Assembly (NCBI GenBank): GCA_030145245.1 | Contig: JAQYWC010000070.1 | Location: 6,040 to 70,039 of the forward strand | Origin: Desulfobacterium sp. | GTDB lineage: Bacteria; Desulfobacterota; Desulfobacteria; Desulfobacterales; Desulfobacteraceae | Direction: 5' to 3' | Length of the DNA stretch: 64,000 bases | In this document: one piece after another, positions 11,359 to 46,112 of the stretch | How positions within the stretch are numbered: position 1 is the stretch's first letter | How the letters are laid out: each line of letters opens with the position of its first letter | Program-made: the position numbers and the translations under genes | Notes under the pieces: generated by a model | Database searches by the model: none | Told to the model about the DNA's origin: nothing | What the model saw: only the letters and a program-made list of their open reading frames with translations

Positions 11359-11825
11359 ACCATGGATGGGTCAGGGTGAGAACATGAAACCGAGCTTGCT
11401 GAAAAACAAAGCAATATCTCCCTGTTTCAGGAATACGGCCTGTTTCCGGGAGAGTTGTCTGAGTCCAAGGGATCAGGAACGGGAACCTGCAGGATACCGG
11501 GCCGGAGGCAAAAGGCCATAAAGCTCAAAGATAATGATCGCTAAGATAATTAACCGGCCAGGGAAGAGGAGTCCTGATCCGGTGACTCCGCTTTTCGAGT
11601 AATTTTTCAGAAAACAATTATTAAACCCTTGACGACTTGGATATAATTTGTAATGCGGTATCAGATCATGCCCTAAAGGATACAAAATTAAAATTTCAAC
11701 CTGTAGCGATATGGAGACGGAAAGCCACGGGTCATAAATGATAGCTGGACGGCATGAGCCGTTTGTCCCATGTGCGTCATTTACAGGATCTTTCTGATTA
11801 CGGCATAATAATTAAGGGAACCACC

Positions 11826-13148
11826 ATGAAGGACGAAAAAAGCAGACAAGATGAGACCTCGAAACTGGAATTTATTGAGCAGGTCGAAAATACAATCATC
11901 GGACTGATCGCATTCGGAAAACGCTTTTTTGTTACCATTATAGCAGTGGCCTTCTCACCCTCTCAATTTGGTAAACACTTGCGCGAAAGACCCCATGGGA
12001 ACAACTTCGTCAAACCGTATACCTTTCTTGTTATATCAACGTTTCCCTTTATAAAAATTGTCCGGTTTATAATGGTTTCCATTTTAGTATGGGTTAACGT
12101 CACTTTAAAAGGGTGTCACCCCAAGCAAGACACGCCTCAGACAAACTTACCGAATTTCAATGAGTATCTGGTGATTCCATCCATTGAAGAAATAACAATA
12201 ATTGGATTATCTATGATTATTGTGGTTTCCATTATGACATGGGTACTGCGAATAATTCTGACAAAATCCGCACCTGAGCTTAAACCCATATTTATCAAGG
12301 GCGCCTGCTATGCAATAGGCATTCAATACCTCTTTTATCTTCTGTTGCTATGTGTATTTTATGGCACTATGAGAACTATTGAATTCCAACCAGTTAAATC
12401 GCTTCAATGCCTTAAGCCGGTTTTATCGGTTTTATCGGAAGCATTGAACTATATGCTCAATTTTGTAATCGAATTTGATTATGCTATCGAAATTATAGTC
12501 CCACTTTTGTTAATCTGGCCCGCAATAATTTTATCACGCCTTGTCATGCAACAGATTCCAGAGGAAAAATTCCGCATAAGCCGCATATTATACAGGAGAC
12601 TCGTTTCAGGGTCCATGGCAATGATCTTTTGCGCATCAACGTTCATAGTAAGTTTTGGCGTCCCCTATTCTTTTGCAAAATTTGATGAGAAAGGAAAGTA
12701 CAAATTTATCCCGGTGATCCAGGTCGTATTGCTGGAAAAAAAAGAGATCAGCGAGCATCCCACTGAAATCACTCTTTCAATCCTTAATAAAACAGGAGAC
12801 CTTCTGCTATTCGATTCCAATGATATCACCTTTATTGCAGAAGATAATTGGGCGTATAAAGGAACCTTAACAGACTGGGAAAAGGCCCCTGCTCCGGTTA
12901 TCTCAATTCCGGCCAGGGGAAGCACTTGGCTGACGGTTAAGCTAACCCGCCAGGATAAGAGGGATAAGCCACTTTTAGAAGAGTCAAAGGGTCGAGTTAT
13001 CCTCAAGCAAATCGAATCATCGGAAGAGAGGACTAAAATTAAAGGAAATTTATGGAAAAAGGAATTTGACTATTCTGCCCACCCTTTAGTGGTCTTATAT
13101 TTTTCAAACAAATCAGAGAATCTTGCAATATCCAAATCACTCATTTAG
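11826..13148 (+). CDS. Hypothetical polytopic membrane protein with a ~150-aa soluble C-terminal domain
   Basis: The ORF lies in a very AT-rich stretch. ATG 11826 is preceded by AAGGGA. It has several hydrophobic helices. I recognise no family signature. Confidence 0.55.
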   Translation: MKDEKSRQDETSKLEFIEQVENTIIGLIAFGKRFFVTIIAVAFSPSQFGKHLRERPHGNNFVKPYTFLVISTFPFIKIVRFIMVSILVWVNVTLKGCHPKQDTPQTNLPNFNEYLVIPSIEEITIIGLSMIIVVSIMTWVLRIILTKSAPELKPIFIKGACYAIGIQYLFYLLLLCVFYGTMRTIEFQPVKSLQCLKPVLSVLSEALNYMLNFVIEFDYAIEIIVPLLLIWPAIILSRLVMQQIPEEKFRISRILYRRLVSGSMAMIFCASTFIVSFGVPYSFAKFDEKGKYKFIPVIQVVLLEKKEISEHPTEITLSILNKTGDLLLFDSNDITFIAEDNWAYKGTLTDWEKAPAPVISIPARGSTWLTVKLTRQDKRDKPLLEESKGRVILKQIESSEERTKIKGNLWKKEFDYSAHPLVVLYFSNKSENLAISKSLI

Positions 13149-18614: not shown

Positions 18615-18630
18615 TGGCACATTAGTTGCT
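18615..18630 (+). promoter_or_regulatory. Sigma-54 (RpoN) -24/-12 promoter upstream of the PEP-CTERM gene
   Basis: The sequence TGGCAC-attag-TTGCT matches the TGGCAC-N5-TTGCW consensus exactly. It lies 155 nt upstream of ATG 18785. Confidence 0.6.
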
Positions 18631-18784
18631 GAAGTTGAATAAGAATTCACTAAAAAGTGATATTTTCCTCAAAAGTCGTATTTTAACATCCATGATAAAG
18701 CCAAACCAGTGGCAACACTGGGACGGAAAGCCTAGGATCCCGTGGGGGGACAGCCGGTTGCCGTGGAAAAACATGGAGGTTGTT

Positions 18785-19417
18785 ATGAACAAGTTTTTCA
18801 GCTTTTTAATGGGGTTGTTTTTAGTCTTTGCGGTTGCAGAGGGTGCTGGTGCCTACAGTTTTGACATGGGGCCGAATTCTAATGTCGACGTAAGCGGCAC
18901 CCAAAATGCGTTAGAGTTGTATGCCACCGTCAACCCGAATTTAGATAGCATTCTGTTTAATCTTGAGGCAGGTCAATCACACGAGTTTTACTTCGCAACA
19001 ATCGGAACAACTGAATCATGGATCAACGCCGATGACGAGGAAACAGGGAACGTAGCTGCTAACATCGATTTTGAAATTCCAGATATAATTCAGGGAGTCA
19101 ACGGGGTATCTGTTGGCTTTTCAGGATGCCTTGAATTTACTCAAGGCTGGGATCTTACATGGAATGACCCTGTGTATGTTGATTTCGGTTATCAAAACAG
19201 TGGACGATTTTCAATTGAGTTATCAGATGTTAGTGGTTCAAACGGCTGGTGGCAAGGGCCAGGAAGCAGTGCAAAGGTCTTTGCTACAATAGCCCTGATG
19301 TCAGAGCCCAGTCTCGAGCCTGCGCCCGAGCCTATTCCAGAACCTGCAACCATGGTTCTTTTCGGCCTTGGCCTTGTCGGCCTTGCCGGAGTAACCAGGA
19401 AGAATTTCAGAAAGTAA
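18785..19417 (+). CDS. PEP-CTERM sorting-domain secreted protein
   Basis: GGAGG precedes ATG 18785. There is a signal peptide, and the C-terminus PEPATMVLFGLGLVGLAGVTRKNFRK has the PEP motif, a TM helix and a basic tail. Confidence 0.85.
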   Translation: MNKFFSFLMGLFLVFAVAEGAGAYSFDMGPNSNVDVSGTQNALELYATVNPNLDSILFNLEAGQSHEFYFATIGTTESWINADDEETGNVAANIDFEIPDIIQGVNGVSVGFSGCLEFTQGWDLTWNDPVYVDFGYQNSGRFSIELSDVSGSNGWWQGPGSSAKVFATIALMSEPSLEPAPEPIPEPATMVLFGLGLVGLAGVTRKNFRK

Positions 19418-20894: not shown

Positions 20895-21707
20895 TCAGGA
20901 GGCCGTCAATAAAGAGGCCACGGTTCCCTGGTCCAGGGCCTTGTCCCGGAGGAACCCGAACACGGCCTTGCCCTTGATCCATGCAGGCGGTTGCCCATCC
21001 CCCCCCTGCCTGAGGCTTGCTATCCACCCGGGATCCAGACTTGCCACGGGATCGGGCCAGAGCACAAGCCGGTTGCTCTCCGGATCGTAGATCACCATGG
21101 GGCCGAAAAACGTCCGGCCGGAGGCGTCGGTGGAAACACTGCCCCAGGTGCGATATCCCTTGATCTGGAACAGGGAAGGCGCCGGAACATAGCCCAGGAT
21201 CTCGGCAAAGAGCACCACAGCCTGTACCACCTCCTCTTCCCTGCTGTTTTCAAGGGCTGCCACACCCTCCTCAACCATGACAGCAAGGTCCGCCCCATCA
21301 AAGGTAAGATCCAGGGAGCCGAGCAGATCCTGCTGAAGAAAGACAAGGGAACCGGTTCGCCGACTCTTCACAACATCCTTGTCGCTGAGGATCTTGATGG
21401 CATTACGCACGTTGAGCATCTCCTTGAGGGTGGGATTCCGCCGTAGCAGGACATCGGCAAGGGTGGTCTCAAACAGGGGCAGCTCGTTGTCAAGCACAAG
21501 AATCTGATAGGTACCGTCACTAAGGGGCCTGAGATAGAGATCCATCTCCCGCTCCCTGAGGAGCTCAAAGGTGGACATGTCAAGAAGCTGTTTCATGGCC
21601 TTTTTGTTAACCTTGAGACCGCTCGCAACCGAACCCAGGGTTCTGTCCACGGTGCTGACAAGATCGTTGATGGTGATCCGCTTTAAAAGATTTTCCTTGA
21701 AACCCAT
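20895..21707 (-). CDS. Hypothetical protein (270 aa), co-oriented 12 nt downstream of trmH
   Basis: GGAGG is upstream of ATG 21707. I recognise no family signature. Confidence 0.55.
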   Translation of the reverse strand: MGFKENLLKRITINDLVSTVDRTLGSVASGLKVNKKAMKQLLDMSTFELLREREMDLYLRPLSDGTYQILVLDNELPLFETTLADVLLRRNPTLKEMLNVRNAIKILSDKDVVKSRRTGSLVFLQQDLLGSLDLTFDGADLAVMVEEGVAALENSREEEVVQAVVLFAEILGYVPAPSLFQIKGYRTWGSVSTDASGRTFFGPMVIYDPESNRLVLWPDPVASLDPGWIASLRQGGDGQPPAWIKGKAVFGFLRDKALDQGTVASLLTAS

Positions 21708-22211: not shown

Positions 22212-22368
22212 ACCTATGTAATACCCCTGTGAAGGCAAACAGTCAACCGGCAGAGGCCGATCTTTAACCTATGCTAATCAGATTGTTTATGATAATTTTG
22301 TCCGTCAGTAAAAACAAGGAATAGATAATAATGGGACACCCATTACAACCACACAAAGGAGGGAGACG

Positions 22369-22587
22369 ATGAAAGATACCGTAATAATTTTCGGCAAAAG
22401 CTCATGACCCTTTACCAGCGCTGCCCGGGGGGCATTTACAACGAAAAAGATCGCGTTCAGGTATATAGATGTGGTGATGGAGCCGAGCCAGTTAGAAACA
22501 ATGCTTGAATATTCAGACGGCAACCGCATGGTGCCGGTGATCGTTGAAAACGGCAAGGTCACCATCGGATACCAGGGCAAAGGCTGA
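22369..22587 (+). CDS. Glutaredoxin-like (NrdH/YruB-type) small redox protein with an in-frame TGA (putative selenocysteine) at codon 13
   Basis: AGGAGGGAG lies upstream of ATG 22369. My hand translation is MKDTVIIFGKSS-[TGA 22405-22407]-PFTSAARGAFTTKKIAFRYIDVVMEPSQLETMLEYSDGNRMVPVIVENGKVTIGYQGKG, ending at TGA 22585-22587. The TGA falls exactly where the first Cys of a CPxC redox motif is expected. The downstream frame keeps thioredoxin-fold hallmarks: (I/Y)xxIDV, a cis-Pro VP and a G-K-x-I-G-Y strand. Confidence 0.6.
22422..22434 (+). other. Candidate bacterial SECIS hairpin downstream of the in-frame TGA
   Basis: UGCCC-GGG-GGGCA forms a 5-bp GC-rich stem with a G-only apical loop. It starts 15 nt after the UGA. 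It is short and needs a covariance or SECIS-model check. Confidence 0.3.
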
Positions 22588-22647
22588 AAGATCTGATTTC
22601 CGGCTGTATGCCGGAACACGTTACAACATTACAACAGGAGCACTCAA

Positions 22648-23313
22648 TTGAAGCAGACAAAAGCGACAAACGGGCAATTCCCCATAGACGACTTTAAAAG
22701 CGGTGAATCATGGCGTCTGTTCAAGATCATGGGAGAATTTGTCGAGGGCATCGATACCCTGCACAACATCGGCCCTGCCGTCTCCATCTTTGGATCGGCC
22801 CGGACAACCCCTGATAGCCCATGCTATAAAAAAGCAGAAACCATTGCAGCCCTGTTTGCAAAGGCAGGTTACGGTGTTATCACCGGCGGCGGCGGGGGCG
22901 TCATGGAGGCGGCCAACAAAGGGGCTGCATCGGTAGACGGCACCTCGGTGGGGCTCAACATCAACCTCCCCTTTGAACAACAGCCCAACCCTTACGCAAA
23001 CATAGGTCTGGAGTTCAACTACTTCTTTATCCGCAAGGTGATGTTCATCAAATACGCCCAGGCCTACATCATCATTCCCGGCGGGTTCGGCACCCTGGAC
23101 GAGCTGTTTGAGGCCGTCACCCTGATCCAGACCCACCGGCTCAAACCCCTGCCCATTATCCTTGTGGGAACCGAGTACTGGGGCGGTCTTGTGGATTGGA
23201 TTAAGGCACGGATGATCAAGGACAAAATGATATCACCCAAAGACCTGGACATCTTCCAGGTCCTGGACGATCCCGAAGAGATCGTAAAAGCGGTTGTGGA
23301 GTTCAATAAATAA
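22648..23313 (+). CDS. LOG-family (TIGR00730) nucleotide 5'-monophosphate nucleosidase
   Basis: Contains GGGGGVMEAANKGA and PGGFGTLDELFE motifs. The TTG start is preceded by AGGAG. Confidence 0.85.
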   Translation: MKQTKATNGQFPIDDFKSGESWRLFKIMGEFVEGIDTLHNIGPAVSIFGSARTTPDSPCYKKAETIAALFAKAGYGVITGGGGGVMEAANKGAASVDGTSVGLNINLPFEQQPNPYANIGLEFNYFFIRKVMFIKYAQAYIIIPGGFGTLDELFEAVTLIQTHRLKPLPIILVGTEYWGGLVDWIKARMIKDKMISPKDLDIFQVLDDPEEIVKAVVEFNK

Positions 23314-26514: not shown

Positions 26515-28911
26515 ATGAACAAAACAGACAAAAGCAAACCGGGCACATCAAAAAGAATCCGAACTTACTGCGCCCAGTGCTGGAGCAATTGTCCGGCCGT
26601 GGCGCACATTGAAAATGGTAAATTCACCCGGGTGACACCCGATAAGGAACATCATTTTTACAGGCCGCTTTGCCCTAAAGGGCTGGCCGGACCGGAAATG
26701 GTTTATAGCAATACCAGACTTACGTATCCCCTTAAGCGTACGAATCCTAAAGGTGCGGCTGATCCCGGGTGGAAGCGCATAAGCTGGGAGGAAGCATTGG
26801 ATACGGTTACTGCTGAAATGAAAAACATTAAAGCCCGATATGGCGCTGAGGCATTTGTTTTTTCACAGACCAATGTTTCCTCACCGTTGTGGGAGATCAC
26901 ATCGTTCATAAGGCGGTTATCCAACATCTACGGCACCCCCAACCACATGACAACCACCCACATCTGCAACTGGCATAGGGATAATGGATCGGCTTTCACC
27001 TTTGGCAAACCCGGAAATGCCTTTGCGGCGGGCTGGCCGGATTTCAAAAACAGTAAATGCATTCTCATTTGGGGACACAACCCCAAGGCCACACACAATG
27101 CTTTCAGACGGCAAATTAAAGCTGCACGAAAGAATGGAGCCAAGGTCATTGTTGTTGACCCGCGGCGAACAGAGATTGCAGCTAAAGCGGATCTTTGGTT
27201 GCCGGTTAAGCCGGCAACGGATGGTGCCCTGGCCTTGGGCATGATTCATCTTATGATAAAACATAAACTATTCGATGATCGTTTTGTACGGAACTGGACC
27301 AATGCACCGTTATTGGTGAGGAGCGACACAGGAGATCTGCTTCAGGTTTCTTCCGTTGATTCTTCCGGGAAAAACCAGGGTCTGTTTTATTTAATAGATC
27401 CTGGAAACAATCAGCCCGTCCCCTCCATACCCGGATCAAAGCTTGATTTCACCCCGTGCCTTGAAAAAAAAACCAATATCAAGCTTGCCGATGGTAAACG
27501 TGTCGAATGCAAAACCGTCTTTACACGGCTTAAAGAAGCTGTGGCAATGTATACGCCTGAAGTTGTCGAACAGCACACATCGATTCCCATGGAGCTTTTG
27601 GAAAAAACAGTTCGCACGGTTACCGGCAACAGCCCGGCATGCTGGTATTCATTCAATGGTGTGGAACAGAACCTGAATGCCACTCAAACGAATCGGGCCA
27701 TATGCACCTTCTATGCTCTTACGGGAGATTATGACAAAAAGGGTGGCAATACCGTACATTCTCCTCTTCCCCCCCTGGACTATCCTTTCGGTTTTGAATT
27801 TATCACTCAGGAGATGCCTGGAAAGAATATAGCCATCTCAAAACATCCCCTCGGCCCGGCGGGTAGCCTTATGTCCGTTCCGCCCTACCAGATATGCAAA
27901 GCCATTGAAGAAGCAGACCCGTACCCGGTTAAAGGGCTCCTGGTCTTTGGCGCAAATACGGTTTCCGCCAATCCGGACAGCAAGATGACAGCAAATGCAC
28001 TGAAGAAGCTGGATTTTCATGTTCATGTTGCCCTCGATATCAATCCGACGGCAGAATTTGCAGACATCATCCTGCCCTCAACAAGTTTCTGGGAGACAGG
28101 TCGTATCGGCTATCCTCTGGAATTTCAAGCAAACCAATGGATACTGCAATGGCGTGAACCGGCGGCAAAGCCACGCGGAGAAAGCAAAGACGAATTATGG
28201 ATCATATTTGAACTTGCAAAACGACTGGGATTTGCCGACAAATTCTGGAATGGAAACATTGAGGCCGCTTTTGAAGCGATGCTTGGGCCCACTGAAATTA
28301 AGCTCAAAGACCTGAAAAAAGCGGATGGAGGAATATTCATACAGGAGCCGTTTGAGTATCAGAAACACAAAAAAATCGGCTTTGACAGCATCTCCGGACG
28401 TGTAGAACTCTTCTCTCAACATCTGAAGGAGATCGGGCAAGCGCCTGTACCGGAATGGAAAAACCCCTATGAGATTTTCAAAAAGGCCGGAATAGACAAG
28501 GACAGTTATCCTTTTATTCTCATCAATTCCAAATTGCGCGGGTATTGTCAATCCCAGCACCGGGCCATCCCCTCTTTAAGGAAACAACATCCCCATCCGT
28601 TTTTAGAAATCAACCTGAATACGGCAGAGGAGATCGGCATCACCGAAGGAGAGGCGATCATTCTGGAAACCGTCAATGGTAAAATAACGCTTCAGGCCAA
28701 GCTGATCGATGGTATTGCGCCGGAAGTCGTCTGCACCCAGCACGGATGGTGGCAAGCATGCACTGAACTGGGCTTGCCCGGTCATGATATTTACTCCCCC
28801 AAAGGCCCGAATGTTAACCTGTTATATAAAAATGATTTTACAGACCCGATAAGTGGATCCGTGCACATTCGGGGTTTTCCTTGCAACATTAGAAAAAAAG
28901 GACTTGACTAA
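26515..28911 (+). CDS. Molybdopterin (bis-MGD) oxidoreductase catalytic subunit, DMSO-reductase superfamily, cytoplasmic type
   Basis: 798 aa. The N-terminal Fe-S motif is CAQCWSNCPAVAHIENGK...LCPKG, with MopB core blocks and a C-terminal beta-barrel region. There is no Tat signal. GGAGGAGG is upstream. Confidence 0.85.
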   Translation: MNKTDKSKPGTSKRIRTYCAQCWSNCPAVAHIENGKFTRVTPDKEHHFYRPLCPKGLAGPEMVYSNTRLTYPLKRTNPKGAADPGWKRISWEEALDTVTAEMKNIKARYGAEAFVFSQTNVSSPLWEITSFIRRLSNIYGTPNHMTTTHICNWHRDNGSAFTFGKPGNAFAAGWPDFKNSKCILIWGHNPKATHNAFRRQIKAARKNGAKVIVVDPRRTEIAAKADLWLPVKPATDGALALGMIHLMIKHKLFDDRFVRNWTNAPLLVRSDTGDLLQVSSVDSSGKNQGLFYLIDPGNNQPVPSIPGSKLDFTPCLEKKTNIKLADGKRVECKTVFTRLKEAVAMYTPEVVEQHTSIPMELLEKTVRTVTGNSPACWYSFNGVEQNLNATQTNRAICTFYALTGDYDKKGGNTVHSPLPPLDYPFGFEFITQEMPGKNIAISKHPLGPAGSLMSVPPYQICKAIEEADPYPVKGLLVFGANTVSANPDSKMTANALKKLDFHVHVALDINPTAEFADIILPSTSFWETGRIGYPLEFQANQWILQWREPAAKPRGESKDELWIIFELAKRLGFADKFWNGNIEAAFEAMLGPTEIKLKDLKKADGGIFIQEPFEYQKHKKIGFDSISGRVELFSQHLKEIGQAPVPEWKNPYEIFKKAGIDKDSYPFILINSKLRGYCQSQHRAIPSLRKQHPHPFLEINLNTAEEIGITEGEAIILETVNGKITLQAKLIDGIAPEVVCTQHGWWQACTELGLPGHDIYSPKGPNVNLLYKNDFTDPISGSVHIRGFPCNIRKKGLD

Positions 28912-45074: not shown

Positions 45075-46112
45075 TTAGATGTATTCCATGCCTTCGCCAT
45101 CTTTGACGGTGCCGATTTTAAAGGCTTTTTCGCCCATGCTCTCAACGGTTTTGATGACGGCATCAGCCTGGGAAGGGTCAACGATGAGCACGAAACCGAT
45201 GCCCATGTTAAAGGTTTTGTACATTTCAGCGGTTTCGATCTCTCCAAGGTTCTGGATAAGCGGGAAGAGCTTGTTCATTTCCCAGGAGTCCAGATCGATG
45301 GTGGCGCCCAGGCCTTCAGGAAGGACCCGTGGGATATTTTCGGTGAACCCGCCGCCGGTAACGTGGACCATGCCGTTGACAGGGTGGCTGGCCAGGATTT
45401 CAAGGACCTCTCTGACGTATATTTTTGTGGGGCAGAGAAGCGCTTCACCCAGGGTCATGCCCAGCTCTTCAATGGGCTGGTCTATTTTATAGTCCAGGAT
45501 ATCAAAGAACAATTTCCTTACCAAAGAATAACCGTTGGAGTGAATACCGGTTGACGGAAGACCGATGAGCAGATCATTGGGTTTTATCTTGCTGCCGTCG
45601 ATTATTTTTTCTTTTTCAACGATGCCAACGGTGAAACCTGCGATATCGTACTCGTCCTCATCGTAGAAGCCTGGCATTTCTGCGGTTTCTCCACCGATGA
45701 GGGAAGCGCCGGCCTGTTTGCAGCCGTCGGCAATGCCTTTAACGATGTCGGCGGCTTTATCGGCAGTGAGCTTTCCTGTGGCGATGTAATCGAGAAAGAA
45801 AAGCGGTTTTGCTCCCTGTACAAGGATGTCGTTAACGCACATGGCAACGAGATCGATACCGGCGGAGTCATGCTTGTCCGTCATAAAGGCAATCTTGAGT
45901 TTTGTTCCGACACCGTCGGTTCCGGAGACAAGGACAGGTTTTTTGTATCCCTCAAGATCCAGTTCAAAGAGTCCGCCGAATCCGCCGAGGCCGCCCAGGA
46001 CATTCTTGGTGAATGTCTCTTTGACGTACGCTTTCATTTTTTCTACGGCTGCGGCACCCTCTTCTATATCTACGCCGGCATCGGCGTATGTCAGTTTTTT
46101 ACTTTCGCTCAT
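45075..46112 (-). CDS. purM: Phosphoribosylformylglycinamidine cyclo-ligase (AIR synthetase)
   Basis: Starts LTYADAGVDIEEG and contains GGFGGLF, SGTDGVGTK and PSSGIHSNG-type blocks. Confidence 0.95.
   Translation of the reverse strand: MSESKKLTYADAGVDIEEGAAAVEKMKAYVKETFTKNVLGGLGGFGGLFELDLEGYKKPVLVSGTDGVGTKLKIAFMTDKHDSAGIDLVAMCVNDILVQGAKPLFFLDYIATGKLTADKAADIVKGIADGCKQAGASLIGGETAEMPGFYDEDEYDIAGFTVGIVEKEKIIDGSKIKPNDLLIGLPSTGIHSNGYSLVRKLFFDILDYKIDQPIEELGMTLGEALLCPTKIYVREVLEILASHPVNGMVHVTGGGFTENIPRVLPEGLGATIDLDSWEMNKLFPLIQNLGEIETAEMYKTFNMGIGFVLIVDPSQADAVIKTVESMGEKAFKIGTVKDGEGMEYI

Follow-up and report, generated by a model that had tools for sequence, protein, structure and literature searches.

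The plus strand of the window (the whole 64-kb stretch of DNA that was analysed) very probably carries, at positions 22369-22596, a gene for a 75-residue minimal glutaredoxin fold with two selenocysteines, a member of UXX-star selenoprotein family 1 (NCBIfam model NF041114). It is a genuine selenoprotein gene, but its kind is known already: reviews and NCBIfam list the family together with its UxxT motif and the presence of two Sec, and the gene is one more member that brings no new biology. The family is widespread, with 243 confirmed loci in the genome collection. The locus is a textbook case of a gene lost to standard ORF callers, with two in-frame TGAs in 75 codons and an antisense artefact as all that remains; the second Sec codon is also easily missed by a reader, because it looks like a stop.

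A ribosome-binding site read from the sequence (AGGAGG, 22357-22362, plus strand) lies 6 nt 5' of the ATG at 22369, and a site of the GGAGG type precedes the ATG at the equal position in all five Desulfobacterium orthologues. From this ATG, 12 codons (MKDTVIIFGKSS) lead to an in-frame TGA at 22405-22407, after which the frame stays open for 59 codons and reaches another TGA at 22585-22587. These elements had been described in an earlier reading of the sequence alone, and all of them were found as described; the same reading ended the gene at 22587, and this end had to be moved. By comparison with relatives, the TGA at 22585-22587 is a second Sec codon, so that the protein has the tail U-K-I-stop and is 75 residues long with two Sec. 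The 3' end reads GGC TGA AAG ATC TGA, of which TGA AAG ATC TGA occupies 22585-22596; the true stop is the TGA at 22594-22596, which follows K74 and I75, and the complete plus-strand coding sequence (22369-22596) comprises 75 codons and the stop. Its product reads MKDTVIIFGKSS-U-PFT...GYQGKG-U-KI, with U13 (22405-22407) at the catalytic position of the C/U-P-[FY]-T motif and U73 (22585-22587) as the family-defining U of the C-terminal U-X-X-stop. Of the selenoprotein proposed by the sequence-only reading, the Sec at the catalytic site was retained, and the form of 72 residues with a single Sec gave way to the longer one. In the leader, a palindrome (AATGGG-ACA-CCCATT, 22330-22344, plus strand) was observed downstream of a weak promoter-like site (22264-22293) and upstream of the ribosome-binding site. 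It is partly kept in one related locus (L005). The intergenic region is common to this gene and the divergent SpoU-methylase gene, and the palindrome could serve there as an operator or form a 5' hairpin.

The read-through product matched NF041114, an equivalog model of 70 positions, with 99.1 bits in its 72-residue reading and 100.6 bits in its 75-residue reading, against a cutoff of 72; the match covered positions 1-69 of the model, the tail included. This was the top match among all NCBIfam models, with an E value of 1e-28 for the plus-strand read-through. The Pfam glutaredoxin family (PF00462) was matched with an E value of 6.6e-12, which bears out the earlier description of a gene with a glutaredoxin fold. 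Five homologues with Cys, 67-73 residues long, came from a protein search. One of them (P0001) carries the NCBI name 'UXX-star (seleno)protein family 1'; all five terminate at ...IGFGGT, which corresponds to the apparent end of the window protein. The more precise label given earlier, 'NrdH/YruB-type', holds as a description of the fold and fails as a family assignment, since the scores for NrdH (TIGR02194, 30.2 bits against a cutoff of 85.75) and YruB (TIGR02196, 39 bits against 88.55) were far below their cutoffs. The same was true of GRX_bact (TIGR02181, Grx3; 36 bits against 90).

Between the window protein and UXX-star family 1 there is no essential difference. The protein scores above the equivalog cutoff and shares with the family a length of about 70-75 residues, the U/C-P-[FY]-T motif, the VPVIVENGKVTIG core, the C-terminal U-X-X-stop, a hairpin after the stop and the two-Sec state that is listed for the family. 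It departs from the usual pattern in its tail, which is K-I instead of the usual G-V or E-V (the orthologues of the clade have K-V or R-V), and in the linker before U73, which is GKG instead of GGT. UXX-star families 2 and 3 and the HUGP/GUXX-star fusion resemble it in having a Grx-like core and a C-terminal U-X-X-stop; the window protein scored below the cutoffs of NF041211 (65-71 against 100), NF047338 (51 against 97) and NF045501 (41-44 against 325). In the selenoproteome literature, UXX-star selenoprotein family 1 goes by the name 'Distant Grx-like protein 1', and a review table of 2026 lists the family with a UxxT motif and two Sec (PMC13188914). The name is absent from the main text of the GOS paper that reviews cite for it, and Peng et al. 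2016 do not mention it.

The sole conventional, uninterrupted ORF at the locus lies on the minus strand (22305-22619, 104 residues), and its presence is what could be said for the view that both TGAs are ordinary stops, that the plus strand is non-coding or encodes short peptides, and that the minus-strand ORF is the real gene. The product of this ORF matched no family, whereas the plus-strand read-through had the NCBIfam match given above and the segment after the first TGA matched Glutaredoxin even when it was searched alone (E 4.8e-07). In addition, only three of 81 relatives lack stops in the antisense frame, and in the other 78 it is interrupted. Differences from the five orthologues fell on codon positions 1, 2 and 3 in the numbers 59, 50 and 118 (p=1.5e-8). 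Since the true frame and the antisense frame have a common wobble position, this test alone does not suffice to reject the antisense ORF, and the common position is also why that ORF stays open. Taken together, these results make it extremely unlikely that the minus strand holds the gene, and they confirm the earlier statement that the ORF at 22305-22619 is an artefact.

To compare the two TGA codons across loci, one genome per prokaryotic species was scanned, in a collection outside which the window's own genome lies; 243 loci were confirmed and 80 retained. The nearest loci, with 71-82% identity, come from five MAGs of Desulfobacterium. In all of 83 loci a TGA forms the C-terminal codon, and it is followed in each by exactly two codons and then by a terminator, which is TGA in 46 loci, TAG in 22 and TAA in 15. 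The two-residue tails of these loci are GV (37), EV (20), AV (9), KV (3) and others, the window having KI. The N-terminal redox position has TGC in 39 loci, TGT in 15 and TGA in 29; TAA and TAG are absent from it. The U-P-F-T of the window aligns with the C-P-Y-T of the homologues, which carry Cys (TGC or TGT) exactly where the window has the TGA at 22405-22407, as had been proposed. On a rough neighbour-joining tree, the N-terminal position switched between Cys and Sec at least 10 times. Each of the five Desulfobacterium orthologues has both TGAs at these positions, as do loci of many other phyla, a pattern far beyond chance; forms with two TGAs were found in Desulfobacterium, Methylomirabilota (NC10), Acidobacteriota, Nitrospinota, Tectomicrobia, Planctomycetota, Udaeobacter and Syntrophobacter. 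An invariant TGA before a variable true stop and an alternation of Cys and TGA at a catalytic site are the classical signatures of Sec. The DNA of locus L001 has a layout like that of the window: its apparent stop is a TGA, which is followed by GAG GTC TGA and then by a GC-rich hairpin.

One might suppose that an ordinary gene of the Cys form received its N-terminal TGA through faulty sequencing or through a recent nonsense mutation, and that the C-terminal Sec, if there is any, is alone real. The Cys forms are indeed the majority (54 of 83 loci), and a single base change turns TGC or TGT into TGA. However, the TGA recurs in 23 further loci of other phyla and in all five Desulfobacterium orthologues, whose assemblies are independent, and the codons that flank it are conserved, as are the upstream ribosome-binding site and the ATG. 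With the evidence from synonymous sites that is described below, this supposition is very improbable, and U13 is retained.

None of selA, selB, selD and the gene for tRNA-Sec was found in the 64-kb window, which contains no tRNA gene at all. An ORF resembling AIR synthases (45075-46112) was considered as SelD and rejected, as it scored 457 bits with PurM and 25.7 with SelD, against a cutoff of 125; the ORFs in the window that have the size of selA or selB proved to encode other proteins. A scan of the whole window for further TGA-interrupted ORFs returned noise and adjacent genes only, and no other selenoprotein gene was evident. Desulfobacterium is a lineage known to decode Sec, and relatives in the genus possess the machinery. 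From the conservation of both TGAs in relatives and the use of Sec by the genus, we infer that the window's genome is likewise capable of Sec decoding. If the organism had reassigned TGA, to Trp or Gly for instance, neither codon would be a Sec codon. We found nothing specific in favour of reassignment, and several observations oppose it: TGA terminates 10 of the 38 long ORFs in the window, which indicates the standard genetic code; the residue aligned in the homologues is Cys; the pattern at the terminal stop is typical of Sec; and the relatives belong to the Sec-decoding lineage just named. The probability of such a reassignment is close to nil. A molybdopterin oxidoreductase is also encoded in the window (26515-28911, plus strand); it is akin to formate dehydrogenase alpha subunits and DMSO-reductase-type enzymes, all at scores below the equivalog cutoffs, and its ORF is uninterrupted by any in-frame TGA, so that it is not a selenoprotein form.

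A SECIS element is the mRNA signal by which Sec insertion is directed. Within the coding region, a candidate SECIS element for the first TGA was located at 22422-22434 on the plus strand (UGCCC-GGG-GGGCA), with a stem of 5 bp and a loop that begins at nt 23 after the U of the UGA. The hairpin, which had been pointed out in the sequence-only reading, is present and conserved in the Desulfobacterium clade, and comparative signals support it; its folding energy, on the other hand, was not better than that of shuffled sequence. Similarly, no difference between Sec and Cys forms was seen in the minimum free energy around the N-terminal codon. The weakness of this hairpin in energetic terms could be held in favour of an error or mutation at the first TGA, against which stands a signature of the Sec forms at synonymous sites. 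The string CCCG (22424-22427 in the window's hairpin) was found at nt 20-23 after the N-terminal codon in 28 of 29 Sec forms and in 9 of 52 Cys forms (p=7e-13, kinship ignored). It arises from synonymous choices, the Ala codon at +6 being GCC in 28/29 Sec forms compared with 10/52 Cys forms, and the Arg codon at +7 being CGK in 29/29 Sec forms. At the N-terminal site, 72% of the Sec forms and 31% of the Cys forms have a hairpin with 5 bp or more and a G in its loop (p=3e-4, kinship ignored). Within the clade, third codon positions are invariant at 13 of 17 codons in the stretch 7-23 and at 10 of 49 in the stretch 24-72 (p=6e-5, kinship again ignored). It was further observed, from the window and the matching site of 28 other loci, that GCCCGKG after the N-terminal UGA is near-invariant in Sec forms across phyla and that its predicted pairing partners vary by clade; GCCCGKG may be a common feature for SelB recognition rather than a simple stem.

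A second hairpin, SECIS 2 (UUCCGGC-UGUAU-GCCGGAA, 22598-22616, plus strand), is situated in the 3' UTR, where its 7-bp stem starts from 10 nt after the UGA and its loop from nt 21; its free energy is -12.3 kcal/mol. In shape, this hairpin and the one after the first TGA agree with a bacterial SECIS, a stem-loop a short way past the UGA whose small apical loop has a G at a more or less constant distance. Hairpins at the C-terminal site were counted when they had at least 5 bp, a loop start 19-24 nt from the U of the UGA and a G in the first two loop positions. By this definition a hairpin was present in 97.5% of 80 loci, compared with 21.7% of shuffles and 13.9% of control windows placed 150 nt downstream. 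The stems were mostly of 6-8 bp, and the loops mostly GGU, GGC, GGUC or GUU. A T-run followed the hairpin in only 5% of loci, which indicates that these hairpins are not terminators. Within the Desulfobacterium clade, 95% of cells were paired at SECIS 2 and three pairs showed compensatory changes, while slid controls gave 17-57%. Rfam returned no relevant match near the gene, either at the gathering threshold or at E<=10. In the Eisenbacteria locus L001, which is a Cys form, a strong hairpin (GCGCGC-GAGGAGUUC-GCGCGC, 2895-2925) was observed at the place where Sec forms carry the SECIS; the hairpin may be left over from a time when the locus encoded Sec, or high GC content may have produced it by chance.

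The comparison of loci shows both UGAs to be Sec codons; in the decoding mechanism that we propose, each would depend on a separate hairpin of the bacterial SECIS type further downstream. For UGA13 this would be the hairpin in the coding region, whose loop is about 23 nt away, and for UGA73 the hairpin in the 3' UTR, which starts from 10 nt and lies just beyond the true stop. The terminal UGA, only 1 nt from the latter hairpin, would be too close for SECIS action, and translation would terminate there. A comparable arrangement exists in thioredoxin reductase, in which a 3' UTR SECIS allows decoding of a UGA that precedes the true stop by a few codons, and the Sec lies near the C-terminus on a flexible tail, in the Gly-Cys-Sec-Gly arm. 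The likeness is one of mechanism only and is drawn by analogy, as protein family, size and domain of life differ; moreover, the partner residue in the window protein would be in the N-terminal Grx motif and not adjacent in sequence, unlike in thioredoxin reductase.

The structural setting of the two residues was judged from the AlphaFold model of a homologue with 60% identity (P0002; pLDDT 84), which has the order b1-a1-b2-a2-b3-b4 followed by a disordered tail (pLDDT 43) and is devoid of a C-terminal helix. Its closest structural matches were small glutaredoxins, BC3987 and NrdH (TM 0.77-0.80), and the only solved structures that could be reached by sequence were distant glutaredoxins. Transferred to the window protein, the model shows U13 at the predicted catalytic site and U73 on what is modelled as a flexible tail. 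Like nearly all family members, the window protein has no CxxC dithiol motif, its fourth position being Thr (UPFT). Escherichia coli Grx3 and the selenoprotein Grx of C. oremlandii (UxxC) have in common with it the Trx/Grx fold (TM 0.70-0.80), the PF00462 match and an N-terminal catalytic Sec or Cys; it differs from classical and clostridial glutaredoxins in having Thr for the second Cys of the motif, no C-terminal helix and an extra Sec in the tail. U13 would take the place of the catalytic Cys in a C/U-P-x-T motif without a second Cys. U73 would be carried on an unstructured tail right after beta4 and a Gly-rich turn, an element that borders the active site in classical glutaredoxins, and this tail Sec would most likely serve as the resolving partner of residue 13. 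The resolving step would lead to a selenenylsulfide in the Cys forms and to a diselenide in two-Sec forms like that of the window.

From the chemical point of view, a protein that may form a diselenide would be of interest. We put forward, as a tentative proposal that may well fail, that in the two-Sec forms U13 and U73 make up a genuine catalytic diselenide couple and that the adjacent LOG gene, described below, is a dedicated partner and not an instance of chance synteny. If this were true, the protein, a minimal Grx fold of 75 residues, would be one of a handful of natural proteins with a diselenide and smaller than all the others.

The main rival on the chemistry is a site that binds a metal or a substrate: the two residues would form no redox couple at all, and a bis-selenolate site would bind a metal or metalloid (Hg, As, Cu) or carry a persulfide or selenide, with the protein acting as a chaperone or carrier and not as an oxidoreductase. 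It has been noted in a review that the Sec residues of the family may bind metals or unknown substrates (PMC13188914). A motif without the second Cys of the classical CxxC would suit such a role, as would the lack of the C-terminal helix of glutaredoxins in the homologue model. By contrast, the fold, the cis-Pro and the Gly-rich elements are those of thiol-disulfide oxidoreductases, and no metal-resistance genes adjoin the window locus. Across the family, the neighbours also change from lineage to lineage, 9 loci having LOG, 10 an APH-type kinase and the rest other genes, which tells against a binding site of this kind and at the same time leaves the genomic context uninformative on function. 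We consider the bis-selenolate site unlikely.

In the window itself, the selenoprotein gene heads a co-directional run of a LOG/TIGR00730 gene, an N6/N4 DNA methylase and an alpha/beta hydrolase (esterase); gene order and family matches agree with the run as it had first been described. The LOG gene (22648-23313, plus strand) matched PF03641 with an E value of 2e-35 and TIGR00730 with 152.8 bits. No terminator-like site was found on the plus strand from the selenoprotein gene to the LOG gene, and the two are probably co-transcribed. The adjacency is kept in L005, L007, L008, L009 and L011, and the order is conserved in the Desulfobacterium clade. Over the loci compared, a LOG gene adjoins or is near the UXX-star gene in L005, L007-L009, L011, L048, L056, L062, L067, L072, L077 and L079; the genomes with this linkage are those of Desulfobacterium, Desulfonema and several NC10, and Sec forms account for 8 of the 9 tightly LOG-linked loci. 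In 10 other loci an APH-type kinase is found immediately downstream, and in L001 an NTP-transferase. Analysis of the neighbourhood across the family revealed no universal partner.

Several other features of the window were recorded. Two ORFs, one of 270 residues on the minus strand (20895-21707) and one of 464 residues on the plus strand (11754-13148), had no match in Pfam or NCBIfam; the former has a counterpart, 59-83% identical, beside the SpoU gene of each of the five Desulfobacterium relatives. A c-di-GMP-I riboswitch (RF01051) was detected at 18690-18765 on the plus strand, with 57.6 bits against a gathering score of 35. It falls within the 5' part of a mechanically called ORF (18626-19417) for a PEP-CTERM protein, and the true start of this gene is probably downstream of the riboswitch.
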